DNA from: an uncultured Gammaproteobacteria bacterium
GTDB lineage: Bacteria; Patescibacteriota; Patescibacteriia; Magasanikbacterales; UBA922
Assembly: GCA_965231005.1 (NCBI GenBank)
Contig: OZ246405.1
Location: 866,709-930,708, forward strand
Direction: 5' to 3'
DNA: 64,000 nucleotides
The notes below the pieces were generated by a model. The model made no database searches and had not been told where the DNA came from. It saw nothing but the letters and a program-made list of their open reading frames with translations. Shown here in pieces: positions 7,094 to 57,772 of the stretch (the first letter of the stretch is position 1; every line of letters begins with the position of its first letter). The position numbers and the translations under genes were made by a program.

Positions 7094-7116
7094 CGCTAAA
7101 CAAGATGTAGAGAAAT

Positions 7117-20297: not shown

Positions 20298-21320
20298 ATG
20301 GGGAAAAGACTCCTAAATCACTATAGGCTGAAACGTAAGCTAGAAACAAAGATTCGTCGTGCGCGACAAGAACTTTTAGCACCTATAGCCCCACATAAGA
20401 GCCGGCATGATTATGCATGGAGAAGAAAGAAAAGGAATCCTTATGCATATGAGCACAAGCAAAGTCCTTTAAAACAGAGGATTCAAATTGTTATTATATT
20501 ACTTTCATTTGTAACAACGCTCGGTTTTATTTTTTTTCACAAGTCATTTCATATTACCACCGTTAGTGTATCAGGATTAACTCGTCTTAGTGAGTATGAA
20601 ATATCAGATGCAGTACTTGGTTCGTTGGATTATAAAAAAGTATTTTTGTTTCCTGCAGCAAGTTTTTTTCTAACAAATGTCCATGACATAAAAGATACAC
20701 TCCATGCTCGATTTCCTGTGGAATCTGTGTTGGTAAAAAAAAGTTTTCCAAATACAATTGAAATTTTTGTTAATGAAAAGATATCAACTATTATATATGA
20801 CAATGGTCAACAATACGCATATATAGGCTTAGATGGAAAAGTTGTAGAGCCGCTTCGTATTGTTGGTGATGATGAGTGGATGAGAAAAACAGAAATTGTA
20901 ACTTCTACAAATGAGCTAGGGGAAGAGGTTGCAGATGAAAAAATCATTGAAGAATCTCACAAACCACCTGTAGCGCAAATATTGAGTGAAATGGGGGATT
21001 ACCCTATAGTCTATGTGGATGATCGAAAAGATTTGAAGGTAAATGATAATGTAATCAAGCCACAACATATGGAAGGAATTGTAGAATGGTTTAATTATCT
21101 TGAAAGAAAGACAGATATTCCAATTGGCTATATACAGATAAAGAATGAAGTGGGGGAGGGGCTTATTACAACACGAGAAGGGTGGAAAATATTTGTTACA
21201 TTTGACAAAACAGTGTCTCTTCAAGTTGAAAGACTTCAAATTATTTTAAAAGAAAAAGTAACAAGACCGAACTTTCAATATATTGATGTTCGATACGAGG
21301 GGAGAGCGTTTTGGAGATAG
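20298..21320 (+). CDS. ftsQ: Cell division protein FtsQ/DivIB-like (basic N-tail, one TM, POTRA domain)
   Basis: 340 aa; Arg/Lys-rich cytoplasmic tail, TM, then a POTRA-like segment (ITTVSVSGLTRLSEYEI...); last gene of the murF cluster. Confidence 0.5.
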   Translation: MGKRLLNHYRLKRKLETKIRRARQELLAPIAPHKSRHDYAWRRKKRNPYAYEHKQSPLKQRIQIVIILLSFVTTLGFIFFHKSFHITTVSVSGLTRLSEYEISDAVLGSLDYKKVFLFPAASFFLTNVHDIKDTLHARFPVESVLVKKSFPNTIEIFVNEKISTIIYDNGQQYAYIGLDGKVVEPLRIVGDDEWMRKTEIVTSTNELGEEVADEKIIEESHKPPVAQILSEMGDYPIVYVDDRKDLKVNDNVIKPQHMEGIVEWFNYLERKTDIPIGYIQIKNEVGEGLITTREGWKIFVTFDKTVSLQVERLQIILKEKVTRPNFQYIDVRYEGRAFWR

Positions 21321-21326
21321 GTAAAA

Positions 21327-21355
21327 AGTAAAGGCACACGGTTACGCATGCCTTA
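21327..21355. terminator. Bidirectional hairpin between convergent ftsQ and the small island gene
   Basis: AAGGCA/TGCCTT stem with a 12-nt loop, A-rich on the + side and T-rich on the - side. Confidence 0.35.
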
Positions 21356-21384
21356 CTTATGCCCTTTTGTGTCAGTTGTTCTTG

Positions 21385-21735
21385 CTAGTCGTGAGGACCA
21401 CTTGCACCAGCAGGGGCAGTCTGCGGGAACAAGTCACATTCACCTTCATCATCAAGCTTGTCATCAAAGCACTCTGTCTGAGGCAAATGGACGATTTTTC
21501 CAAGACCAAAGCCCCATCCCCACCAGACATACTTTCTGTCTTTGTTCGTGGTTCTGTTTTGATCGATTTCGCAGGCGCTGTGTCTTGCCAAGAAAATGTA
21601 GTTGTTTTGGATCCAGATGTGGAAGTTATAACACCAGCGTTTGATTGTGACTGCACGCCTACAGGGATAGGGGATAAAGCCAAACAGGTAGCAAACTTTC
21701 CACCGTCTGACAGTCTGAGTAATTTGGGTTGGCAT
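21385..21735 (-). CDS. Small (116 aa) Cys/Trp/aromatic-rich protein of unknown function in a GC-rich (~50%) island
   Basis: Canonical AGGAGG SD 8 nt upstream of the ATG at 21735, unlike most native genes here; six Cys, WWGWGFGLGK segment; the longer track ORF (to 21918) extends into AT-rich non-coding DNA. Confidence 0.5.
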   Translation of the reverse strand: MPTQITQTVRRWKVCYLFGFIPYPCRRAVTIKRWCYNFHIWIQNNYIFLARHSACEIDQNRTTNKDRKYVWWGWGFGLGKIVHLPQTECFDDKLDDEGECDLFPQTAPAGASGPHD

Positions 21736-22322
21736 AAGCACACCTCCTGTGTGTGGGTCGGGTTCAATAGTTATTGTAACCGTGTCTGATGAATTTTTTT
21801 TGAAATTAAAATAAGAGGGGAGTAAAAGAGTATATATTATGTCATTTGAGAGGATATGTACTAGTGTCGCACATTGTACCTTATGCGACATTTCTACATT
21901 AAAAAAAGCTAAACTCAATTATTTAGGCATACTCAAATATAATATTGCATAAATTTTTGTTTTAATAATATTATTAATTTTTTACATATCTTATATATGA
22001 ATATAACTTTTACATTCGAATTTTCTGTAATTTTAGGTAGATTGGCCACTACCCTATATTTTCCTAAAATAAGCCAAAAATTCAATATTTTACGACACTA
22101 CAAAAATGCGGTTCAAAAAAAGAGGTAGTAGGACATCTCTTTTTATTACAAAAATTTATGTGAAGATTATAGGACTGGATTTAAGGGAGGCAAATGGAAG
22201 TTTGATTCATGAAAATATCAAATATGACATGTTAATGAAGGGAATTTGCTCGTTTATTCAGAGTTGTTTGAAAAGTAAAAACATCATTTAACCATCCTGA
22301 ATGTTGTGCGACACAAATAAAT

Positions 22323-30344: not shown

Positions 30345-30369
30345 AACAGCTCAATGGGGCTGTTTTTTC
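30345..30369 (+). terminator. Intrinsic terminator after clpB (AACAGC / GCTGTT stem, then T-run)
   Basis: 6-bp stem, 8-nt loop, followed by TTTTCT; preceded by AAAAA. Confidence 0.45.
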
Positions 30370-30436
30370 TTGACAATAATAAAAGAATCACGGTATTCTC
30401 TAGATGGCAATGGTGCCAAAATACTAGGAGGTCAAC

Positions 30437-30910
30437 ATGGTTGATCCAATGGAGCACGTCGTGCCCCCTATGCCATCTCCTAGCGCTACTATTGCACGCA
30501 TAGGAGATATCTCAAACGATGAGAGGGCAGCAGCCAAGAGGTTCGAAGAGATCATTCCTGAACAAATAGGGCAAGGCTGGACAGCGTACCCAATCATTGG
30601 AATCGGGCGACGAAGAAATCTCCGGCTGCACGCGAAGTTCATAAGCGAATGCTTTGGGATTGAGTATATCGCAATTAAGCGGGTAGAAGTCCACAGCGTG
30701 TGGATTCCCCCAACCATTAGCAACGGGAACCTAAGAGAATTTCAATGCAAGATAGTGCTGAAAAATCATTTTGAAACAATCTGCAAGTACCACATTGTTA
30801 CTTGCACGTCAATTTTTCAGATGGTAGTCTTTCTTGCAAAATTGCGCAGAATTCGCTTTCGGGAGAGTGGTCAGACAATGATTGGAGGTATGGAGGGACT
30901 CCAGAAATAA
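30437..30910 (+). CDS. Hypothetical protein; 5' half GC-rich (~52%) with a canonical AGGAGG SD
   Basis: 157-aa ORF framed by a TTGACA/-10-like promoter, AGGAGG 7 nt before the ATG, and a strong downstream terminator hairpin; antisense ORF also open; I could not recognise the region as a known RNA family. Confidence 0.4.
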   Translation: MVDPMEHVVPPMPSPSATIARIGDISNDERAAAKRFEEIIPEQIGQGWTAYPIIGIGRRRNLRLHAKFISECFGIEYIAIKRVEVHSVWIPPTISNGNLREFQCKIVLKNHFETICKYHIVTCTSIFQMVVFLAKLRRIRFRESGQTMIGGMEGLQK

Positions 30911-30941
30911 CGATGACGCGCAAGGGAGACGCGTCATCGTT
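30909..30941. terminator. Bidirectional terminator: 12-bp perfect GC-rich stem between convergent genes
   Basis: AACGATGACGCG, 9-nt loop, CGCGTCATCGTT; on the minus strand followed by TTATTTCT, 9 nt after the ferredoxin stop. Confidence 0.55.
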
Positions 30942-30949
30942 GGAAAATA

Positions 30950-31276
30950 TTAGTTCTCTGGAAATATTTTGGCACCATGCTCATCATAGAGGTGAATTGC
31001 AAGCGTTGGACATGATTGGGCTCCAAGAAGAATCGTATCTTCGTCTTCTGAGTCAGGATCTACTACATATGCCAGATTTTCATCATCCATTTGAAAAACA
31101 CCAGGTGCAACAACAACACATGAACGTGCACCAATACAACCTTGTCTATCTACTACAATCCTTCGTATCTTTCCACCTTTTCTAATTCCTTGCGATAGAT
31201 CTTCTGGAAGGTCTTCGGGAATGACAACATCTGGAAATGCCTCTTGTAATTTTTTTTTAATGTCTTCTTGTGTCAT
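30950..31276 (-). CDS. Single-cluster 4Fe-4S ferredoxin (Pyrococcus-type)
   Basis: 108 aa; DRQGCIGARSC...PGVFQMDDE...AQSCPTLAI matches the D-C-I-G-x-x-C ... C-P mono-cluster ferredoxin pattern. Confidence 0.7.
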   Translation of the reverse strand: MTQEDIKKKLQEAFPDVVIPEDLPEDLSQGIRKGGKIRRIVVDRQGCIGARSCVVVAPGVFQMDDENLAYVVDPDSEDEDTILLGAQSCPTLAIHLYDEHGAKIFPEN

Positions 31277-44358: not shown

Positions 44359-44557
44359 AGTATGAAGAGAAACTAGTGAATAATGTTCCAAACCTGTTAC
44401 TGTAAAACAAAACTCGACTTTGTTCCTCTCACAGTACGATCTGATACGCGGCATTATAGCACAGAAGGTCTATTTTGTCAAGGATTGTCGGAAAAGGAAT
44501 AAAAATCAAATACTCTCTAAAACAAAAGACCCAAACAAGAAAGTTGGGTCTTATCTG

Positions 44558-44630
44558 CTCCGCGGGCCGGACTCGAACCGGCGACAAATTGGTTAACAGC
44601 CAACTGCTCTACCAACTGAGCTACCGCGGA
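44558..44630 (-). tRNA. tRNA-Asn (GTT)
   Basis: Cloverleaf readable by eye: acceptor TCCGCGG/CCGCGGA, D-arm TAGCTCAGTTGGTAGAGC, anticodon loop CTGTTAA, T-arm GGTTCGAGTCC; CCA not encoded. Confidence 0.85.
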
Positions 44631-44740
44631 ATAAATTGTATGTCTCTCATTCAAACAACGATAGTTTACTCACCAGCTTATCCGTACAAATTTTGAAAAA
44701 TGTGTACAAAAGCATTGAGTAACCTAACATAAAATACCAA

Positions 44741-44824
44741 CTGTCCCGACGCTCCGACCTTGTCGGAGGTACGGGACTCCGGACAAAACGCAAAGCGTTT
44801 TCGTCGGAGAGCTACCGCGGAATA
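44741..44824 (-). repeat. Conserved structured element (two hairpins) plus a 16-bp direct copy of the tRNA-Asn 5' end; copy A of a two-member family
   Basis: 44741-44808 has 18+14 nt identical to copy B at 48054-48120 and forms hairpins GTCCCG-ACG-CTCCGAC/GTCGGAG-GTA-CGGGAC and AAAACGC-AAA-GCGTTTT; 44809-44824 exactly equals 44618-44633 (tRNA-Asn nt 1-13 plus 3 nt of flank). Confidence 0.55.
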
Positions 44825-44871: not shown

Positions 44872-45384
44872 CTATTTATCCTCAGCTAGGGATGTTTTTT
44901 TCATAATTAAAAATCCACCAGAAGAGATGGCAACAAATAAAAAGAAGCTAAATACTTCTGCAGTTAGTAATCCAAATAATAGCTTTAGAAAACTAAAGTC
45001 AATGGAGTGAAGGTATAAAGGAAAAGTTATGCCAAAGAAAAGGACAAACTGAATAAGCTCTGCTAACCAGAATGCAATAGAAATGCTTTTTGCATATGTT
45101 CTTATTTTTGTGCCTTCATAGTCTGCTTTCGACAAAAAGAAAATTGGAAGTGCTGCTGGAAGAAAAAAATAGAATATTGTGTACTCTATATTTGAAACAA
45201 GACGTTGGAAACGTTGGTCACCAGAAAATAAATGAAGAATAAGAGTTTTCAGCAAAATAAAAAAAAGCTTCACAAAAATTACTATTCTTGCAATTTTAGG
45301 AAAAGCTTCCCTCCTTTTTGATTGTATCATAGTAAAAATGACAGACGAGTAAAAATGTTGCGAGTGGGCTATGTCAAAAGACAC
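44872..45384 (-). CDS. Hypothetical polytopic membrane protein
   Basis: 170 aa, hydrophobic; no motif. Confidence 0.35.
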   Translation of the reverse strand: MSFDIAHSQHFYSSVIFTMIQSKRREAFPKIARIVIFVKLFFILLKTLILHLFSGDQRFQRLVSNIEYTIFYFFLPAALPIFFLSKADYEGTKIRTYAKSISIAFWLAELIQFVLFFGITFPLYLHSIDFSFLKLLFGLLTAEVFSFFLFVAISSGGFLIMKKTSLAEDK

Positions 45385-45405
45385 AGCCCACCCACAGATG
45401 ACAGG

Positions 45406-45969
45406 CTAATTGGCACCGACCATATCACAGAGCCACGGACCCCACTTGCAGGTGATGTACCAAGCATCGCCACCATTTTCCCAGTTCGCGTACCAGCAAG
45501 CTTTTTGCCAAACCTTCTTTCTCCTCTGGCATTCCACACTGAATGAGAAGTGAGTCCAAGACTGGCCTTTTTTGCTTGCATAAGCTTCCTTGTACGACGA
45601 CAGATCAGTGAGCTCGAGTACGATATCCCTGTTCAAGTCTTCCTTGCGCAGTGTTGACCGAAGAGATCCTTTCGTTTGATGCACGAATGCCGCATGGACG
45701 CGAACGACATCATGATCGTTGATGTTGGCAGAGAAAAAGCCTTGCTCTCCAGTCTTCACGATGAAGTAGGGAGAATCAGGATCGTCTCCGGTCTCGATGA
45801 GCACGTCAGCATTTGCGATCGGTGCACCTTCGAACATGACCTGACCACTCAGCTGGTCGCTGGTGGGCTGCTGATCAACAGCATCGAAATCAGCAGCACA
45901 GCCGGTCATTGCGAAGGCAATGAAAAGAGTGAAAAGAAACAGTTGCTTTGAAACATATTTGAAAGACAT
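45406..45969 (-). CDS. Lipoprotein with a carboxypeptidase-regulatory-like beta-sandwich domain and a Cys/Trp-rich C-terminal tail; GC-rich (~52%) island
   Basis: Start MSFKYVSK at 45969 with AGGGAGG SD 8 nt upstream; lipobox FAMTGC; SGQVMFEGAPIANADVLIETGDD...FFSANI resembles CarboxypepD_reg/transthyretin-like domains; tail CQRRKKVWQKACWYANWENGGDAWYITCKWGPWLC. Confidence 0.55.
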   Translation of the reverse strand: MSFKYVSKQLFLFTLFIAFAMTGCAADFDAVDQQPTSDQLSGQVMFEGAPIANADVLIETGDDPDSPYFIVKTGEQGFFSANINDHDVVRVHAAFVHQTKGSLRSTLRKEDLNRDIVLELTDLSSYKEAYASKKGQSWTHFSFSVECQRRKKVWQKACWYANWENGGDAWYITCKWGPWLCDMVGAN

Positions 45970-46140
45970 TAGTAGTCCCTCCCTTATGTAGAATCCTTGA
46001 TTTCTGAAACAACCCTCGTGGTTATTACACAATCAAGATAGTTTGATTATTATAAATCTATTTTAGTTTGTAAAATAAATCGCCAAAAAACCCTCAAAAT
46101 TAAACAAAAGTGAAAATAGCACGAATTTTTTCAAGCAAAA

Positions 46141-46157
46141 AAGCACCTATTGGTGCT
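46141..46157 (-). terminator. Terminator hairpin after tRNA-Gln (AGCACC/GGTGCT)
   Basis: 6-bp stem with a 5-nt loop, flanked by an A-run and a T-run (bidirectional form). Confidence 0.45.
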
Positions 46158-46166
46158 TTTGCTATG

Positions 46167-46237
46167 CTCGCGGGCAGGGATTCGAACCCCGATAGCCAGG
46201 ACCAAAACCTGGAGTCCTACCATTAGACGACCCGCGA
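46167..46237 (-). tRNA. tRNA-Gln (TTG)
   Basis: Acceptor TCGCGGG/CCCGCGA, anticodon arm CCAGG-TTTTGGT-CCTGG, T-arm GGGGTTCGAATCCCT. Confidence 0.8.
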
Positions 46238-46252
46238 ATGATGTAGGTTATT

Positions 46253-47161
46253 CTATGCTCTGAGATGCTTTCTCATTGCAAAGAAGCTTGAGGCAGTCGT
46301 TAGGAGCAATACTCCAAAGAACTGTAATCCAAGCAGCAATACTATATTCGAATTGAAGTAAATTGTCAAGAACTGTTCTTGACCAAAAATGATATTGATA
46401 TAGGGGTCTAGGAAACTACTGACAAGCAAAATAAGGCCAAATGTACCAGAAACGCTTATAAAGCTGAAGAGAAGAGCCTGAATGACATATGGACCACGTA
46501 TGAACCAATTTGTTGCCCCTACAAGCTTTTTTATGCTTATTTCAATGCGTTGTGTGTAAATAGCAACACGAACAGTATTAAAAATAATGATAAAGGCAAT
46601 AAAGGCAAAGAAAGCACTAAGAGCAAGACTAAACTTTTCTATTTGCCATGTTATGACATCGATCTTGTCAATTGCAGCTTGTGTGTCTTCAAATGTTTTT
46701 GATTCAATAATATGCTCATACTCTGGAACACTCAAATTGCTAATAATCTTTTTATAGTCTCCTGGCTCTCTTGTTTTAATGATAAGTGTTGCACCAAGCG
46801 GATTTTCATTGAGTTCATCAAGTGCAGCAGTGATTTCTGGATTTGCTTTATATTTTCCACTGAAACTTTTAAGAACTTCTTCTGGTGACAAAAATGTTGT
46901 ATCTACAACTTCAGGAAAAGATTGGATGTATTTTTTTACTTCTCCAATCTGCACATCATCGGCTGTGTGATCAAAATAAATACTTACATCTATTTGATCT
47001 TTGATCGTTTCTGTTGCTTCGTTTGTAAGTACACGAATAGCAATAACAGAATTCACTGACAAAAGCATAAGAATCAAAACAAGCACAGTCATGAATGAGA
47101 GGCTTGCATTTCTTGCAATATCTTGAAGAGCAAATTTTATAATTCGAATAAGTCCAAGCAT
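46253..47161 (-). CDS. ftsX: Cell-division ABC transporter permease FtsX
   Basis: 302 aa; N-terminal TM, periplasmic domain, 3 C-terminal TM; immediately downstream of ftsE. Confidence 0.8.
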   Translation of the reverse strand: MLGLIRIIKFALQDIARNASLSFMTVLVLILMLLSVNSVIAIRVLTNEATETIKDQIDVSIYFDHTADDVQIGEVKKYIQSFPEVVDTTFLSPEEVLKSFSGKYKANPEITAALDELNENPLGATLIIKTREPGDYKKIISNLSVPEYEHIIESKTFEDTQAAIDKIDVITWQIEKFSLALSAFFAFIAFIIIFNTVRVAIYTQRIEISIKKLVGATNWFIRGPYVIQALLFSFISVSGTFGLILLVSSFLDPYINIIFGQEQFLTIYFNSNIVLLLGLQFFGVLLLTTASSFFAMRKHLRA

Positions 47162-47167
47162 AGTTTG

Positions 47168-47857
47168 TTATAGAATATATTTTCCATGTGATTTATCAGA
47201 AACAACTTTTCCATCATCAAGAGTAATGACTCTTTTACGGAGTTGATTGACCACTTCCCTATTATGTGTGACAAGAACAACAGTTGTTCCAAACTCATTA
47301 ATCTTTTTTAAAATATCAATAATTTCTTGGGTGTTTACTGTATCTAAATTTCCAGTTGGTTCGTCTGCAACAAGAATTTTTGGTCGGTGGACAAGTGATC
47401 GTGCAATCACAACTCGTTGTTGCTCCCCACCAGAAAGTTGATCTGGATACCTGTCTGCCATGTGAGATAAGCCTACAATATCTAAGACCTTTGGAACAAT
47501 ATCTTGAATTCTACTATGCAATTCACCTGCTACCTGCAGAGCAAAGGCAACGTTTTCGTATACAGTTTTTTTGGGCAGTAGCTTGAAATCTTGAAAAATA
47601 ACACCAATCTGTCTACGCAAGTACGGAATATCTCTTTGTCTAATATCAGTAATATCCCACCCACCTACAATAATGCGCCCTTTACTTGGTCGTTCTTCTG
47701 CAATAAGTAATTTAACAAATGTTGTTTTACCAGTTCCGCTTTGTCCTACAATTGAGACAAATTCACCAGATCCAATTTCTACTGAAACATCAGAAATGCC
47801 AAAACTATTGCGTGTATACTGTTTTGTAACACCATCGAGTGTAATCATATAAAACAA
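47168..47857 (-). CDS. ftsE: Cell-division ABC transporter ATPase FtsE
   Basis: Walker A GQSGTGKTT, signature LSGGEQQR, Walker B ILVADEPTGNLD; the start is probably the internal MITLDGV. Confidence 0.9.
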   Translation of the reverse strand: MFYMITLDGVTKQYTRNSFGISDVSVEIGSGEFVSIVGQSGTGKTTFVKLLIAEERPSKGRIIVGGWDITDIRQRDIPYLRRQIGVIFQDFKLLPKKTVYENVAFALQVAGELHSRIQDIVPKVLDIVGLSHMADRYPDQLSGGEQQRVVIARSLVHRPKILVADEPTGNLDTVNTQEIIDILKKINEFGTTVVLVTHNREVVNQLRKRVITLDDGKVVSDKSHGKYIL

Positions 47858-47986: not shown

Positions 47987-48053
47987 GTACCAAACTAGGT
48001 ATACTACAAAAAGTAGTACTGGATTTAAACTGTGTCAAGTATCAATCCAAAAA

Positions 48054-48136
48054 CTGTCCCGACGCTCCGACTTCGTCGGAGGTACGGGATTCCGACTGAA
48101 CGCAAGGCGTTCACGTCGTAAAGCTAAGGTGGCGTA
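48054..48136 (-). repeat. Copy B of the conserved structured element plus a 15-bp direct copy of the tRNA-Thr 5' end
   Basis: 48054-48120 matches copy A (inner helix TGAACGC-AAG-GCGTTCA carries compensatory changes relative to AAAACGC/GCGTTTT); 48122-48136 exactly equals 47975-47989 (tRNA-Thr nt 1-12 plus 3 nt flank); on the minus strand the outer hairpin is followed by AGTTTTTGG. Confidence 0.55.
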
Positions 48137-56314: not shown

Positions 56315-56427
56315 ACTAATCTTTTTAAAAAATTATCCTTATAAGAAAATACTATCACAATTATCACAAATGTTAAACCCGCCGCTGCTACTGCATTGGC
56401 GGGTCTTTGATTGGTGACCTCCGAAAA

Positions 56428-56739
56428 TTAGCCAGCAATGTTCGTGGAAGCTACTGCGACGGTCCATGCCATAATACTTGAAAAGTAAATCCAATACGCA
56501 AGATTTGTGTTTGGACTACTCCACTGGAACTCAGCAGAGGATGCATTCATTCCAACACAGGAAACCAGAAACACGGCAAGCAGAGTCGGAAGTGTTGGCA
56601 TGTCATGGTTGACCCAAACGAACAGCCCAAGGTCGATGGCTACACATGCGACCAAAAGGAGTGCCCAGAAGTGCTTGTAGAGTTGGTTTGCGACCGCGAG
56701 CAAGATTTGCCCAGACCATGAGAGAATTTCTGTGAACAT
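56428..56739 (-). CDS. Small membrane protein in a GC-rich segment with a strong AGGGAGGG SD
   Basis: Start MFTEILSW at 56739, AGGGAGGG 4 nt upstream; 3 hydrophobic helices; GC-rich terminator hairpin CCCGCC...GGCGGG at 56383-56408. Confidence 0.45.
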   Translation of the reverse strand: MFTEILSWSGQILLAVANQLYKHFWALLLVACVAIDLGLFVWVNHDMPTLPTLLAVFLVSCVGMNASSAEFQWSSPNTNLAYWIYFSSIMAWTVAVASTNIAG

Positions 56740-56812
56740 GTTGCCCTCCCTGCTAATTTTGACAGTAGCACAGTTACAAAAAGAGATCAAACAAAAAAAT
56801 GTGATATACTAT

Positions 56813-57772
56813 ATGTATATGTCGATAATTTTACAAGCTGTTGCACCTATTTTTCTTCTTATCCTTTTAGGAATTGTTGTTGAGGTGTTGCTCAGAGACA
56901 AAATTGAACCACCAAAATATCTTGTCTGGCTTGGCTGTGCAGAAAATTCATGGATAAGTGGGCTAAATGGCTTTGCACTTTATATTGGTCTGCCAGCATT
57001 AATTTTTTATAGTTTGTCTCACACAGACAAGAGCCAAATTTTGTCTTCTCAAATTATAGGTCTAAATGCTTTGATACTTATTGCAACTATTTTTATTGTT
57101 ACTGTTATTGTTCACACACTAAGGCTTAAAAAAGATGTTGCAAATGCATACATTTCTGCAATATTTTTCGGACAAGTCGCTTATCTTGGATTTCCATTTA
57201 TTGAATCTCTTGTTCAGGGATCTACAAGTATTGTAAGCATGCATGTTGCACTACATGTTGGAATTGCCTTTACTGTACTTCTGCTTGTACTTGAGTATCA
57301 AAAAAGTGGAAGGCCAAACACATTCCTTATTCTAAAAAATTTATTTAAAAATCCCCTTCTGCTTTCTGTTCTTTTAGGAATTATTTGGCTTGTCTATGCA
57401 CTTCCAATTAATCCTATTGTAGACAAAGCACTTGCCATGCTTGCAGGAAGTGCTTCTCCTGTTGTTCTTATTGCAATTGGTATGTTTATGGGAAGAAAAA
57501 TTCACTTTGATAAGACATTTAATCATGCAGTTGTTATTGCCGTTATGAAAATTGTGGCACTGCCGCTTGCATTCTTATTTTTGGGAAGACTATCCGGAGC
57601 TAGTGAAGTGTATAATATTTCAATCGTGCTAGCAGGCATGCCTGTTGCACTTACCTGTTTCGCCCTTTCAGAAATTTATGATATCAACAAAAAGATTATT
57701 TCAAATGCAATTGTTATCTCAACACTAGGCTCAGTATTCACACTAACAGCACTCTCGTTCATTGTCTTTTAA
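56813..57772 (+). CDS. Auxin-efflux-carrier (AEC/Mem_trans) family transporter
   Basis: Polytopic membrane protein; N-terminus IILQAVAPIFLLILLG typical of AEC family; start placed at an internal ATG (track ORF begins at 56732). Confidence 0.65.
   Translation: MYMSIILQAVAPIFLLILLGIVVEVLLRDKIEPPKYLVWLGCAENSWISGLNGFALYIGLPALIFYSLSHTDKSQILSSQIIGLNALILIATIFIVTVIVHTLRLKKDVANAYISAIFFGQVAYLGFPFIESLVQGSTSIVSMHVALHVGIAFTVLLLVLEYQKSGRPNTFLILKNLFKNPLLLSVLLGIIWLVYALPINPIVDKALAMLAGSASPVVLIAIGMFMGRKIHFDKTFNHAVVIAVMKIVALPLAFLFLGRLSGASEVYNISIVLAGMPVALTCFALSEIYDINKKIISNAIVISTLGSVFTLTALSFIVF

Follow-up and report, generated by a model that had tools for sequence, protein, structure and literature searches.

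The window analysed here is a 64,000-nucleotide stretch of contig OZ246405.1 (assembly GCA_965231005.1, positions 866,709 to 930,708), with an overall GC content of 36.4%. Our subject is a lipoprotein gene that lies in this window between the genes for tRNA-Gln and tRNA-Asn, as a first-pass annotation had described (Table 1). The order on the minus strand is ftsE, ftsX, tRNA-Gln, the lipoprotein gene, a membrane open reading frame (ORF), tRNA-Asn, a cold-shock protein gene and typA. The window TypA is at most 73% identical to that of the closest metagenome-assembled genomes of Patescibacteria or the Parcubacteria group, and the named homologues of its FtsX come from Candidatus Magasanikbacteria; by these genes the window belongs to a Patescibacteria (CPR) genome. 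The lipoprotein gene stands out by its position, its composition and its rate of divergence, and it probably forms an exchangeable cassette.

We compared the gene order with that of relatives using ftsX as the anchor (contigs L063, L064, L066, L071, L073 and L075, and the contig that encodes P0003, a homologue described below). Around typA, the tRNA context is not shared in GTDB genomes, whose TypA proteins again reach at most 73% identity. In all relatives with long enough contigs, the order 5′ of ftsX is kept: cation ATPase, translin, Mur ligase, DivIC, SurA-like peptidyl-prolyl isomerase, tRNA-Thr, ftsE and ftsX. Downstream of ftsX the gene order breaks. Four relatives (L063, L064, L073 and L075) have tRNA-Gln and tRNA-Asn with no gene between them, at a distance of 4 to about 124 bp compared to 1,535 bp in the window. 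This gives good support to an insertion between the two tRNA genes, on the border of a plastic zone. No homologue of the lipoprotein gene is found downstream of ftsEX in any of the six L contigs.

The gene is also an outlier in composition. Its GC content at third codon positions (GC3) is 0.556, compared to 0.260 ± 0.068 over 64 ORFs of the window, and is the highest value among them (4.4 standard deviations above the mean). The anomaly is therefore neither a matter of chance nor an effect of amino-acid composition. The first-pass annotation had described a gene of about 52% GC; the outlier stands, and the figure does not, as the coding sequence has 49.5% GC and 52% is the peak of one 300-nt window. 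The GC-rich block extends from about 45360 to 45920.

All six Ile codons of the gene are ATC (12% in bulk genes), and CTC/CTG, CAG, AAG, CCC/CCG and AGG/CGC/CGG are raised as well. Since C- and G-ending codons are both raised, the difference is a general compositional one, which argues against simple translational selection. Structured RNA was rejected as the cause of the GC-richness: although the mRNA folds with z = -3.4, its surplus stability of about 25 kcal/mol is close to the estimated share of the 17-bp terminator hairpin. Rfam has no family at the gene.

The adjacent membrane ORF has a native-like GC3 of 0.265, so that only about 0.6 kb of the interval looks foreign. This ORF had been drawn at 44872-45384 in the first-pass annotation. 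The ORF itself was confirmed, with its start moved to the ATG at 45330 of the public record, which we prefer (152 aa). It has no family match in Pfam or NCBIfam and no homologue in the fetched loci.

For the lipoprotein gene, the public record of the genome gives a 208-residue version (45406-46032) that starts at a TTG at 46032, 21 codons farther upstream. Because of the Shine-Dalgarno site and the N-termini of the homologues, we favour the ATG at 45969, which the first-pass annotation had also chosen. The 208-residue version would bury both the Shine-Dalgarno site and the signal peptide; the 187-residue version is found only in the Logan gene calls. The minus-strand sequence before the ATG is ACATAAGGGAGGGACTACTA, and the stretch that carries the Shine-Dalgarno site is AAGGGAGGG, with the reported AGGGAGG located at 45984-45978. 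With a promoter-like site and a terminator-like hairpin of its own, the gene looks monocistronic.

Table 1. Features of the window around the lipoprotein gene, and the equivalent junction downstream of ftsX in relatives (percentages are FtsX identities)
Feature	Position	Strand	Details
ftsE	47168-47857	-	
ftsX	46253-47161	-	
tRNA-Gln(ttg)	46166-46237	-	upstream limit of the interval
Hairpin and T-run after tRNA-Gln	about 46133-46160	-	
Promoter-like site	46046-46074	-	TTTACA-17-AATAAT, 10/12, consensus match only
Shine-Dalgarno site	45978-45984	-	AGGGAGG, GGAGG core 45982-45978, spacer of 8 nt to the ATG
Lipoprotein gene	45406-45969	-	187 aa, ATG at 45969, stop codon 45406-45408
Signal peptide and lipobox	45898-45969	-	residues 1-24, ...FAMTG-C24; G-C invariant in 4/4 family members
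Transthyretin/CarboxypepD_reg-like beta-sandwich	45604-45864	-	about residues 36-122; from profiles, homologues and models
Cys/Trp-rich C-terminal module	45409-45549	-	residues 141-187; from the family alignment
Terminator-like hairpin	45359-45396	-	17 pairs (9 G-C), loop of 4, then ACATTTTTAC; 10 nt past the stop codon
Membrane ORF	44872-45330	-	152 aa, ATG at 45330, 4 predicted transmembrane (TM) segments, GC 0.32, GC3 0.27
tRNA-Asn 5′ copy with palindromic element	44740-44824	-	nt -3 to 13, then 14-21, split by a two-hairpin palindromic element of about 66 nt
tRNA-Asn(gtt)	44557-44630	-	downstream limit of the interval
Junction in L063 (69%)			tRNA-Gln, 15 bp, tRNA-Asn
Junction in L064 (66%)			tRNA-Gln, 124 bp, tRNA-Asn, then two ORFs of GC3 0.54 and 0.44 (genome GC3 about 0.25)
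Junction in L066 (64%)			tRNA-Gln, then 5.6 kb with GC3 0.62-0.85
Junction in L071 (67%)			tRNA-Gln, then Na/Ca exchanger
Junction in L073 (64%)			tRNA-Gln, 4 bp, tRNA-Asn
Junction in L075 (64%)			tRNA-Gln, about 75 bp, intron-containing tRNA-Asn, then large serine recombinase

The rule for bacterial lipoproteins (PROSITE PS51257-type) is a positively charged N-region and a hydrophobic region, followed by [LVI..][ASTG..][GAS]-C with the Cys at position 15-35. The N-terminus of the window protein, MSFKYVSKQLFLFTLFIAFAMTGC, has Lys4 and Lys8, a hydrophobic stretch over residues 10-28 and then A-M-T-G-C24. It has the charged N-terminus, the uncharged hydrophobic region and a Cys within residues 15-35. 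Judged by this pattern and by a G-C that is invariant in the four homologues, it is a real lipobox protein, in agreement with the first reading. The protein would be lipidated, exposed at the surface and disulfide-bonded.

When 5.8 billion clusters were searched with a word index, the lipoprotein itself was the sole match. Three full-length homologues came out of an exhaustive phmmer run against 1.84 billion cluster representatives: P0003 (178 aa), P0004 (184 aa) and P0008 (193 aa), with E values of 2e-7 to 2e-4 and 26-29% identity to the window protein. The same run also matched single domains of large proteins built of CarboxypepD_reg repeats. Searching the 5.8 billion clusters with the family profile added no further members. 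The family comprises four clusters among about 15 billion proteins. Judged by its genomic contexts it looks confined to Patescibacteria, and it is missing from nearly all of them in sequence and profile searches. All four members share the same plan: a signal peptide with a G-C lipobox, a sandwich of about 85 residues, a variable linker and the C-terminal module.

The beta-sandwich had been proposed from the sequence alone, and several lines of evidence now back it. CarboxypepD_reg (PF13620) matches the window protein at 14.1 bits (E 0.063), below its gathering threshold of 32.3 bits, and the best family member at E 2.3e-5, still sub-threshold. DUF4198 gives 24.1 bits (E 4.7e-5) on the window protein and does not reach its cut-off of 34 bits. 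These Pfam matches to CarboxypepD_reg, DUF4198 and DUF6795 are all sub-threshold and are consistent across the four family members. With phmmer, the protein matches the CarboxypepD_reg repeat proteins P0002 (E 7.8e-8) and P0006 (E 6.3e-6), and the matched regions are themselves CarboxypepD_reg repeats (whole-protein E 1.9e-60 and 6.3e-52). AlphaFold models have 7-8 strands with a predicted local distance difference test (pLDDT) score of 55-82 in the sandwich. The best Foldseek matches are transthyretin-like domains, although they are weak, with all E values above 1e-3. Homology to true CarboxypepD_reg members together with the all-beta fold therefore supports the assignment transitively. Eight residues of the sandwich are invariant in all four members (G42, V44, G48, A54, V56, D65, G77 and F79).

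The tail (residues 141-187) holds six of the seven Trp and four of the five Cys of the lipoprotein, and the translation ends CQRRKKVWQKACWYANWENGGDAWYITCKWGPWLCDMVGAN, exactly as quoted in the first-pass annotation. Cys147, Cys158, Cys174, Pro178 and Cys181 are invariant across the four members. Six Cys are present in the module of P0003, P0004 and P0008, which follows the pattern G-C-x-C-H-x9-CC-G-x-Y-x9-11-C-x6-7-C. The window protein, with V-E-C-Q and C-W in place of the first two clusters, is without Cys I and Cys IV. The Cys of the tail are probably cross-linked by disulfides. Knot-type disulfides connect I-IV, II-V and III-VI. The absence of Cys I and Cys IV fits the loss of one disulfide pair, which is suggestive but weak, since 3 of the 15 conceivable pairs would be consistent with it.

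We also looked at where the other members lie. P0003 is encoded directly after FtsE-FtsX, with a gap of 216 bp that has room for tRNA-Gln, and is followed by an ORF of 136 aa. Its contig (204 kb) carries the closest known FtsX to that of the window (73%), and the wider gene order matches the window. The two lipoproteins are about 27% identical, against 73% for FtsX. P0004 and P0008 are both encoded between a divergently transcribed uracil-DNA glycosylase (UDG) gene and a DUF6938 gene; the flanking proteins are 72-80% identical and the lipoproteins 39%. At both loci of the family, the position of the gene is retained, and its sequence diverges several times faster than the flanking genes.

The GC-richness recurs as well. 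The P0004 gene has a GC3 of 0.611 compared to 0.25-0.31 in its flanks, and the P0008 gene 0.851 compared to 0.43-0.58, so that the family gene looks foreign in all the DNA read (window, P0004 and P0008). These results do not fit the islet as a recent acquisition that happened once: in the closest relative a family member directly follows ftsEX, and at the P0004/P0008 locus the gene is again GC-rich relative to its host. A single ancient transfer should have ameliorated, and independent insertions at identical sites would be unparsimonious.

We therefore favour, as the probable explanation, an exchangeable and fast-evolving surface lipoprotein cassette that is horizontally acquired or subject to repeated allelic replacement from higher-GC donors. 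The promoter-like site, the strong Shine-Dalgarno site, the coding sequence and the terminator hairpin would make it a self-contained expression cassette. Its product would be a membrane-anchored extracytoplasmic lipoprotein with an N-terminal sandwich and a C-terminal Cys/aromatic module. The cassette lies in a plastic region that begins at the ftsEX-tRNA-Gln-tRNA-Asn junction, where its alleles would be repeatedly replaced or converted by recombination with higher-GC donors. GC-biased gene conversion, which would push GC upward at a recombination-prone locus, may assist. The clade spans 31-51% GC; therefore the donors could be relatives with the same flanks. The gene and its family, their architecture, the outlying composition, the vacant site in relatives and the position kept in the nearest relative are seen in the data; the history of transfer or replacement is among the things that we infer.

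A number of points weigh against the cassette. Only four members of the family are found, a small sample behind every family-level statement, and the comparison of GC-richness covers the window, P0004 and P0008. The islet holds the lipoprotein gene and the 152-aa ORF, with no integrase, recombinase or mobile-element gene, and no att-type direct repeats flank the lipoprotein gene in the window. No donor lineage has been identified. A phage-borne gene was rejected, as two scans of viral contigs and a search of PHROGs gave no homologue, and no vehicle is therefore identified. For the product itself, the CxCH...CC pattern of three of the four members could bind metal rather than form disulfides, and the tail is modelled at low confidence (pLDDT below 50). 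Finally, P0003 stands at the same place in the nearest relative, which could reflect plain vertical descent combined with fast evolution; the lasting GC-richness would then call for a different cause, for example selection or biased gene conversion.

This last alternative is the one that survives best, although we consider it rather unlikely. Here the lipoprotein is ancestral and vertically inherited, evolves under diversifying selection and keeps GC-rich synonymous sites by selection or GC-biased gene conversion, with no transfer. In its favour are the unchanged position after ftsEX, seen also in the nearest relative, and the common locus of P0004 and P0008. The GC excess is present at both loci with DNA and is unequal (GC3 0.556, 0.611 and 0.851), which is easier to reconcile with local maintenance than with one recent donor. 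The strong Shine-Dalgarno site and the C-ending codons for Phe, Ile, Tyr and Asn fit high expression. Nonetheless, G-ending and rare GC-rich codons are up too (CTG, CCG, AGG and CGG), which is not expected from translational selection, and the cold-shock protein gene, presumably highly expressed, has a GC3 of only 0.316. Moreover, the four relatives with adjacent tRNAs and no gene between them call for at least one insertion, and the family is missing from nearly all Patescibacteria.

The cassette shares several traits with tRNA-associated genomic islets. It is inserted between tRNAs that are adjacent in relatives, it has foreign codon usage, and the cargo differs at the junction from one relative to another; in L075 a serine recombinase is found at the equivalent junction. 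It differs from them in having no integrase and no att repeats, with about 0.6 kb of foreign DNA beside a native-like neighbour ORF. The divergent homologue at the same place in the nearest relative gives it the look of allelic replacement rather than of a single integration. The first-pass description of a classic genomic-islet position holds for the insertion, the foreign codon usage and the variable site, and is tempered by the missing integrase, the absence of flanking att repeats and the native-like membrane ORF.

The tRNA-Asn(GTT) of L075 (6107-6660) is itself unusual. A group I intron (Rfam Intron_gpI, 76.4 bits, E 1.6e-19) splits its anticodon loop, and ARAGORN missed the gene. The serine recombinase lies 3′ of it on the opposite strand.

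Hypervariable lipoprotein loci are known from wall-less or host-associated bacteria, for example Vlp/Vsa of Mycoplasma and Vls/Osp of Borrelia. The faster divergence than the flanks and the kept position recall these loci. The window differs in having no tandem repeats, silent cassettes, invertible promoters or homopolymer switches, and the gene is single-copy. Overall, the locus would be a variable surface-protein islet of an ordinary type, whose unusual trait is the persistent GC-richness at conserved positions. The GC-richness at both loci read may say something general on recombination or selection in reduced genomes.

A diversity-generating retroelement (DGR) was also considered as a source of variation. 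The gene was rejected as a DGR target, since the DNA coding for the tail has no repeat anywhere in the window. A DGR does occur beside the P0008 locus (L062, 1-2009), with bAvd, a reverse transcriptase, a template repeat (TR, 515-589) and a variable repeat (VR, 1-75). TR and VR are 84% identical and differ at TR adenines. The target of this DGR is a gene cut off at the contig end, not P0008.

What the protein does can be approached from its architecture. The sandwich may be the stalk of a small tip that is stabilised by Cys, rich in aromatics and partly basic (QRRKKVWQK...), and this tip would bind an envelope ligand; the envelope would be that of the cell itself or of a host. Patescibacteria live attached to other microbes, and their surface molecules are mostly uncharacterised. 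The foreign composition, the fast divergence and the conserved, unclassified Cys/aromatic module make the lipoprotein a candidate for envelope or host interaction. A bolder version, in which the family is a new class of Patescibacteria surface lipoproteins, the Cys/Trp tip a new ligand-binding fold for the host envelope and the locus hypervariable and GC-rich by recombination between lineages, is in our view speculative and has only a small chance of being right. If true, it would describe a recombination-driven 'host-range cassette' of episymbiotic bacteria. Because the family is tiny, has no assignable function and sits in an ordinary setting beside tRNA genes, the value of the finding is mainly that of an annotation correction and a lead.

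A role in metal handling is less likely still. The protein would then be a NikL/DUF4198- or CueP-like lipoprotein whose Cys/His cluster holds Ni, Co, Cu or Zn, working with the adjacent 4-TM protein. The sandwich has weak matches to DUF4198 (E 4.7e-5) and to NCBIfam NikL (P0003 E 1.4e-4, P0008 E 0.014), and weak Foldseek matches to CueP. Three of the four members carry the G-C-x-C-H ... CC motif, a small membrane ORF adjoins the window gene, and P0003 is followed by an ORF of 136 aa. However, all scores are far under their cut-offs (NikL 21.9 bits compared to 100) and cover the generic sandwich alone. NikL (NF058648) gives no match on the window protein, compared to 21.9 bits on P0003 and 15.4 bits on P0008. 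Of the putative ligands, the window protein has lost three: the His, the Cys before it at the start of the motif and one of the CC pair (VECQ ... CW). No family, CbiM/NikM/CbiQ included, matches the membrane ORF; a small membrane partner is missing beside P0004 and P0008, and there are no NikM/N/Q/O or CbiM/N/Q/O genes among the neighbours (tRNAs, ftsEX, 4-TM ORF, cold-shock gene and typA).

The CarboxypepD_reg, DUF4198 and NikL-type proteins share with the family a domain of about 85 residues, the pattern G-x-V...G...A-x-V...D...G-x-F and a predicted all-beta sandwich, and the window protein is, by its lipobox, a lipoprotein like the NikL type. The differences are the scores under the cut-offs, the absence of an energy-coupling factor (ECF) transporter context and the Cys/Trp module, which is absent from those families.

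Least probable of all is a partnership with FtsEX, for example as adaptor or regulator of a cell-wall hydrolase: the gene adjoins ftsE-ftsX both here and in the nearest relative, but tRNA-Gln and a terminator-like hairpin separate it from ftsX, it has its own promoter-like site, the six relatives without a homologue downstream of ftsEX and the distant P0004 and P0008 do not fit, Pfam-based analysis finds no hydrolase, coiled-coil or LytM-type domain in it, and the adjacency, which is not conserved, follows from the tRNA hot spot.

For the tail, the closest formal likeness is to cystine-knot and hevein mini-domains. Three of the four members have the order C, C, CC, C, C with aromatics after the CC, and the two Cys missing from the window protein (I and IV) are a pair bonded under the knot connectivity. 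The loops of the family are 1, 10, 0, 12-14 and 6-7 residues long, and a first loop of 1 is atypical for these mini-domains. Run alone against Pfam, the tails give no match at E ≤ 10, Chitin_bind_1 included, and among the sequences of the Protein Data Bank (PDB) none falls below E 0.19. A hevein-type carbohydrate-binding module (CBM18), which is marked by a CCS-x-[WYF]-G-x-CG core, or a knottin was rejected, as hhalign against a hand-typed hevein alignment gave a probability of 0.2% and an E value of 0.25 over 7 aligned columns.

The first-pass annotation had also likened the tail to the Cys/Trp-rich core of a protein in another GC-rich island of the window. We compared the 47-aa tail by Smith-Waterman with 1,069 six-frame segments of the window (at least 30 aa each). 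The best local score is 44, no higher than the mean maximum that shuffled tails reach (44.7 ± 5.8), and the other GC-rich stretches (21251-21800, 30351-31150 and 56351-56850) contain none of the top matches. The likeness is therefore not borne out, and the resemblance of the tail to other segments of the window is compositional at most.

Next to tRNA-Asn, a structured element with a direct repeat of the tRNA 5′ end had been noted. The element and the repeat exist. The 5′ end of tRNA-Asn, GAGCTACCGCGGAATA, is directly repeated at 44618-44633 and 44809-44824, and after the element of about 66 nt comes AGTTGGTA, the continuation of the tRNA-Asn D-loop. This looks like a 24-nt fragment of the tRNA-Asn 5′ end with the element inserted past nucleotide 13. 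The element is found downstream of a promoter-like site (44867-44839).

A second, almost identical element is located at about 48050-48133 on the minus strand, upstream of tRNA-Thr and after a duplicate of nucleotides 1-12 of that tRNA. The two elements share a 32-nt core without a single difference (0 copies expected by chance), and in hairpin 1 they differ by two compensatory pair changes. Each is set into a copy of the first 12-13 nt, with the D-loop bases that follow, of its downstream tRNA, and both sit 60-190 nt before the real tRNA. The core CCTCCGACNNNGTCGGAGCGTCGGGA is also present in two unrelated metagenome contigs (L069 255-317 and L070 887-943), one AT-rich and one GC-rich, where it is not beside a tRNA and apparently lies inside coding sequence. 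The element has no Rfam match. These observations suggest a dispersed palindromic mini-element, comparable to the Rickettsia palindromic elements (RPE) or the repetitive extragenic palindromic (REP) elements.

Because the palindromic element recurs upstream of tRNA-Thr, together with a copy of the 5′ end of that tRNA, the repeat at tRNA-Asn is neither an att site nor an islet boundary. The repeat pair brackets 175 bp by tRNA-Asn, with the lipoprotein gene outside, and the element is not linked to that gene in any specific way. In L064, the 5′ end of tRNA-Gln is copied over 18 nt at about 7097-7114, about 100 nt before the real tRNA-Gln, and the copy is followed by other GC-rich sequence. The architecture is as in the window with another insert, and its fold is not significant (z = -0.7).

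Several other GC-rich stretches occur in the window. The ORFs at 30437-30910 (plus strand, GC3 0.497 compared to the mean of 0.26) and 56428-56790 (minus strand, GC3 0.533, hydrophobic) have no significant Pfam match and no homologue in the fetched loci; by their composition they may be further foreign islets. The stretch at 21251-21800 has 45% GC (peak 47%) and follows a gene that ends at 21320. ORFs overlap there on both strands, with no match in Pfam or Rfam, and the stretch would be either a structured RNA or a foreign fragment.

Isolated GC3-rich genes are also found in AT-rich Patescibacteria contigs (L058 2338-3012 on the minus strand, L064 10679-12037 and L062 11882-12220). Such examples include an ORF of 224 aa with a GC3 of 0.61 near tRNA-Trp and a major facilitator superfamily (MFS) transporter with a GC3 of 0.64. 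Scattered GC-rich genes seem to be common in Patescibacteria genomes.

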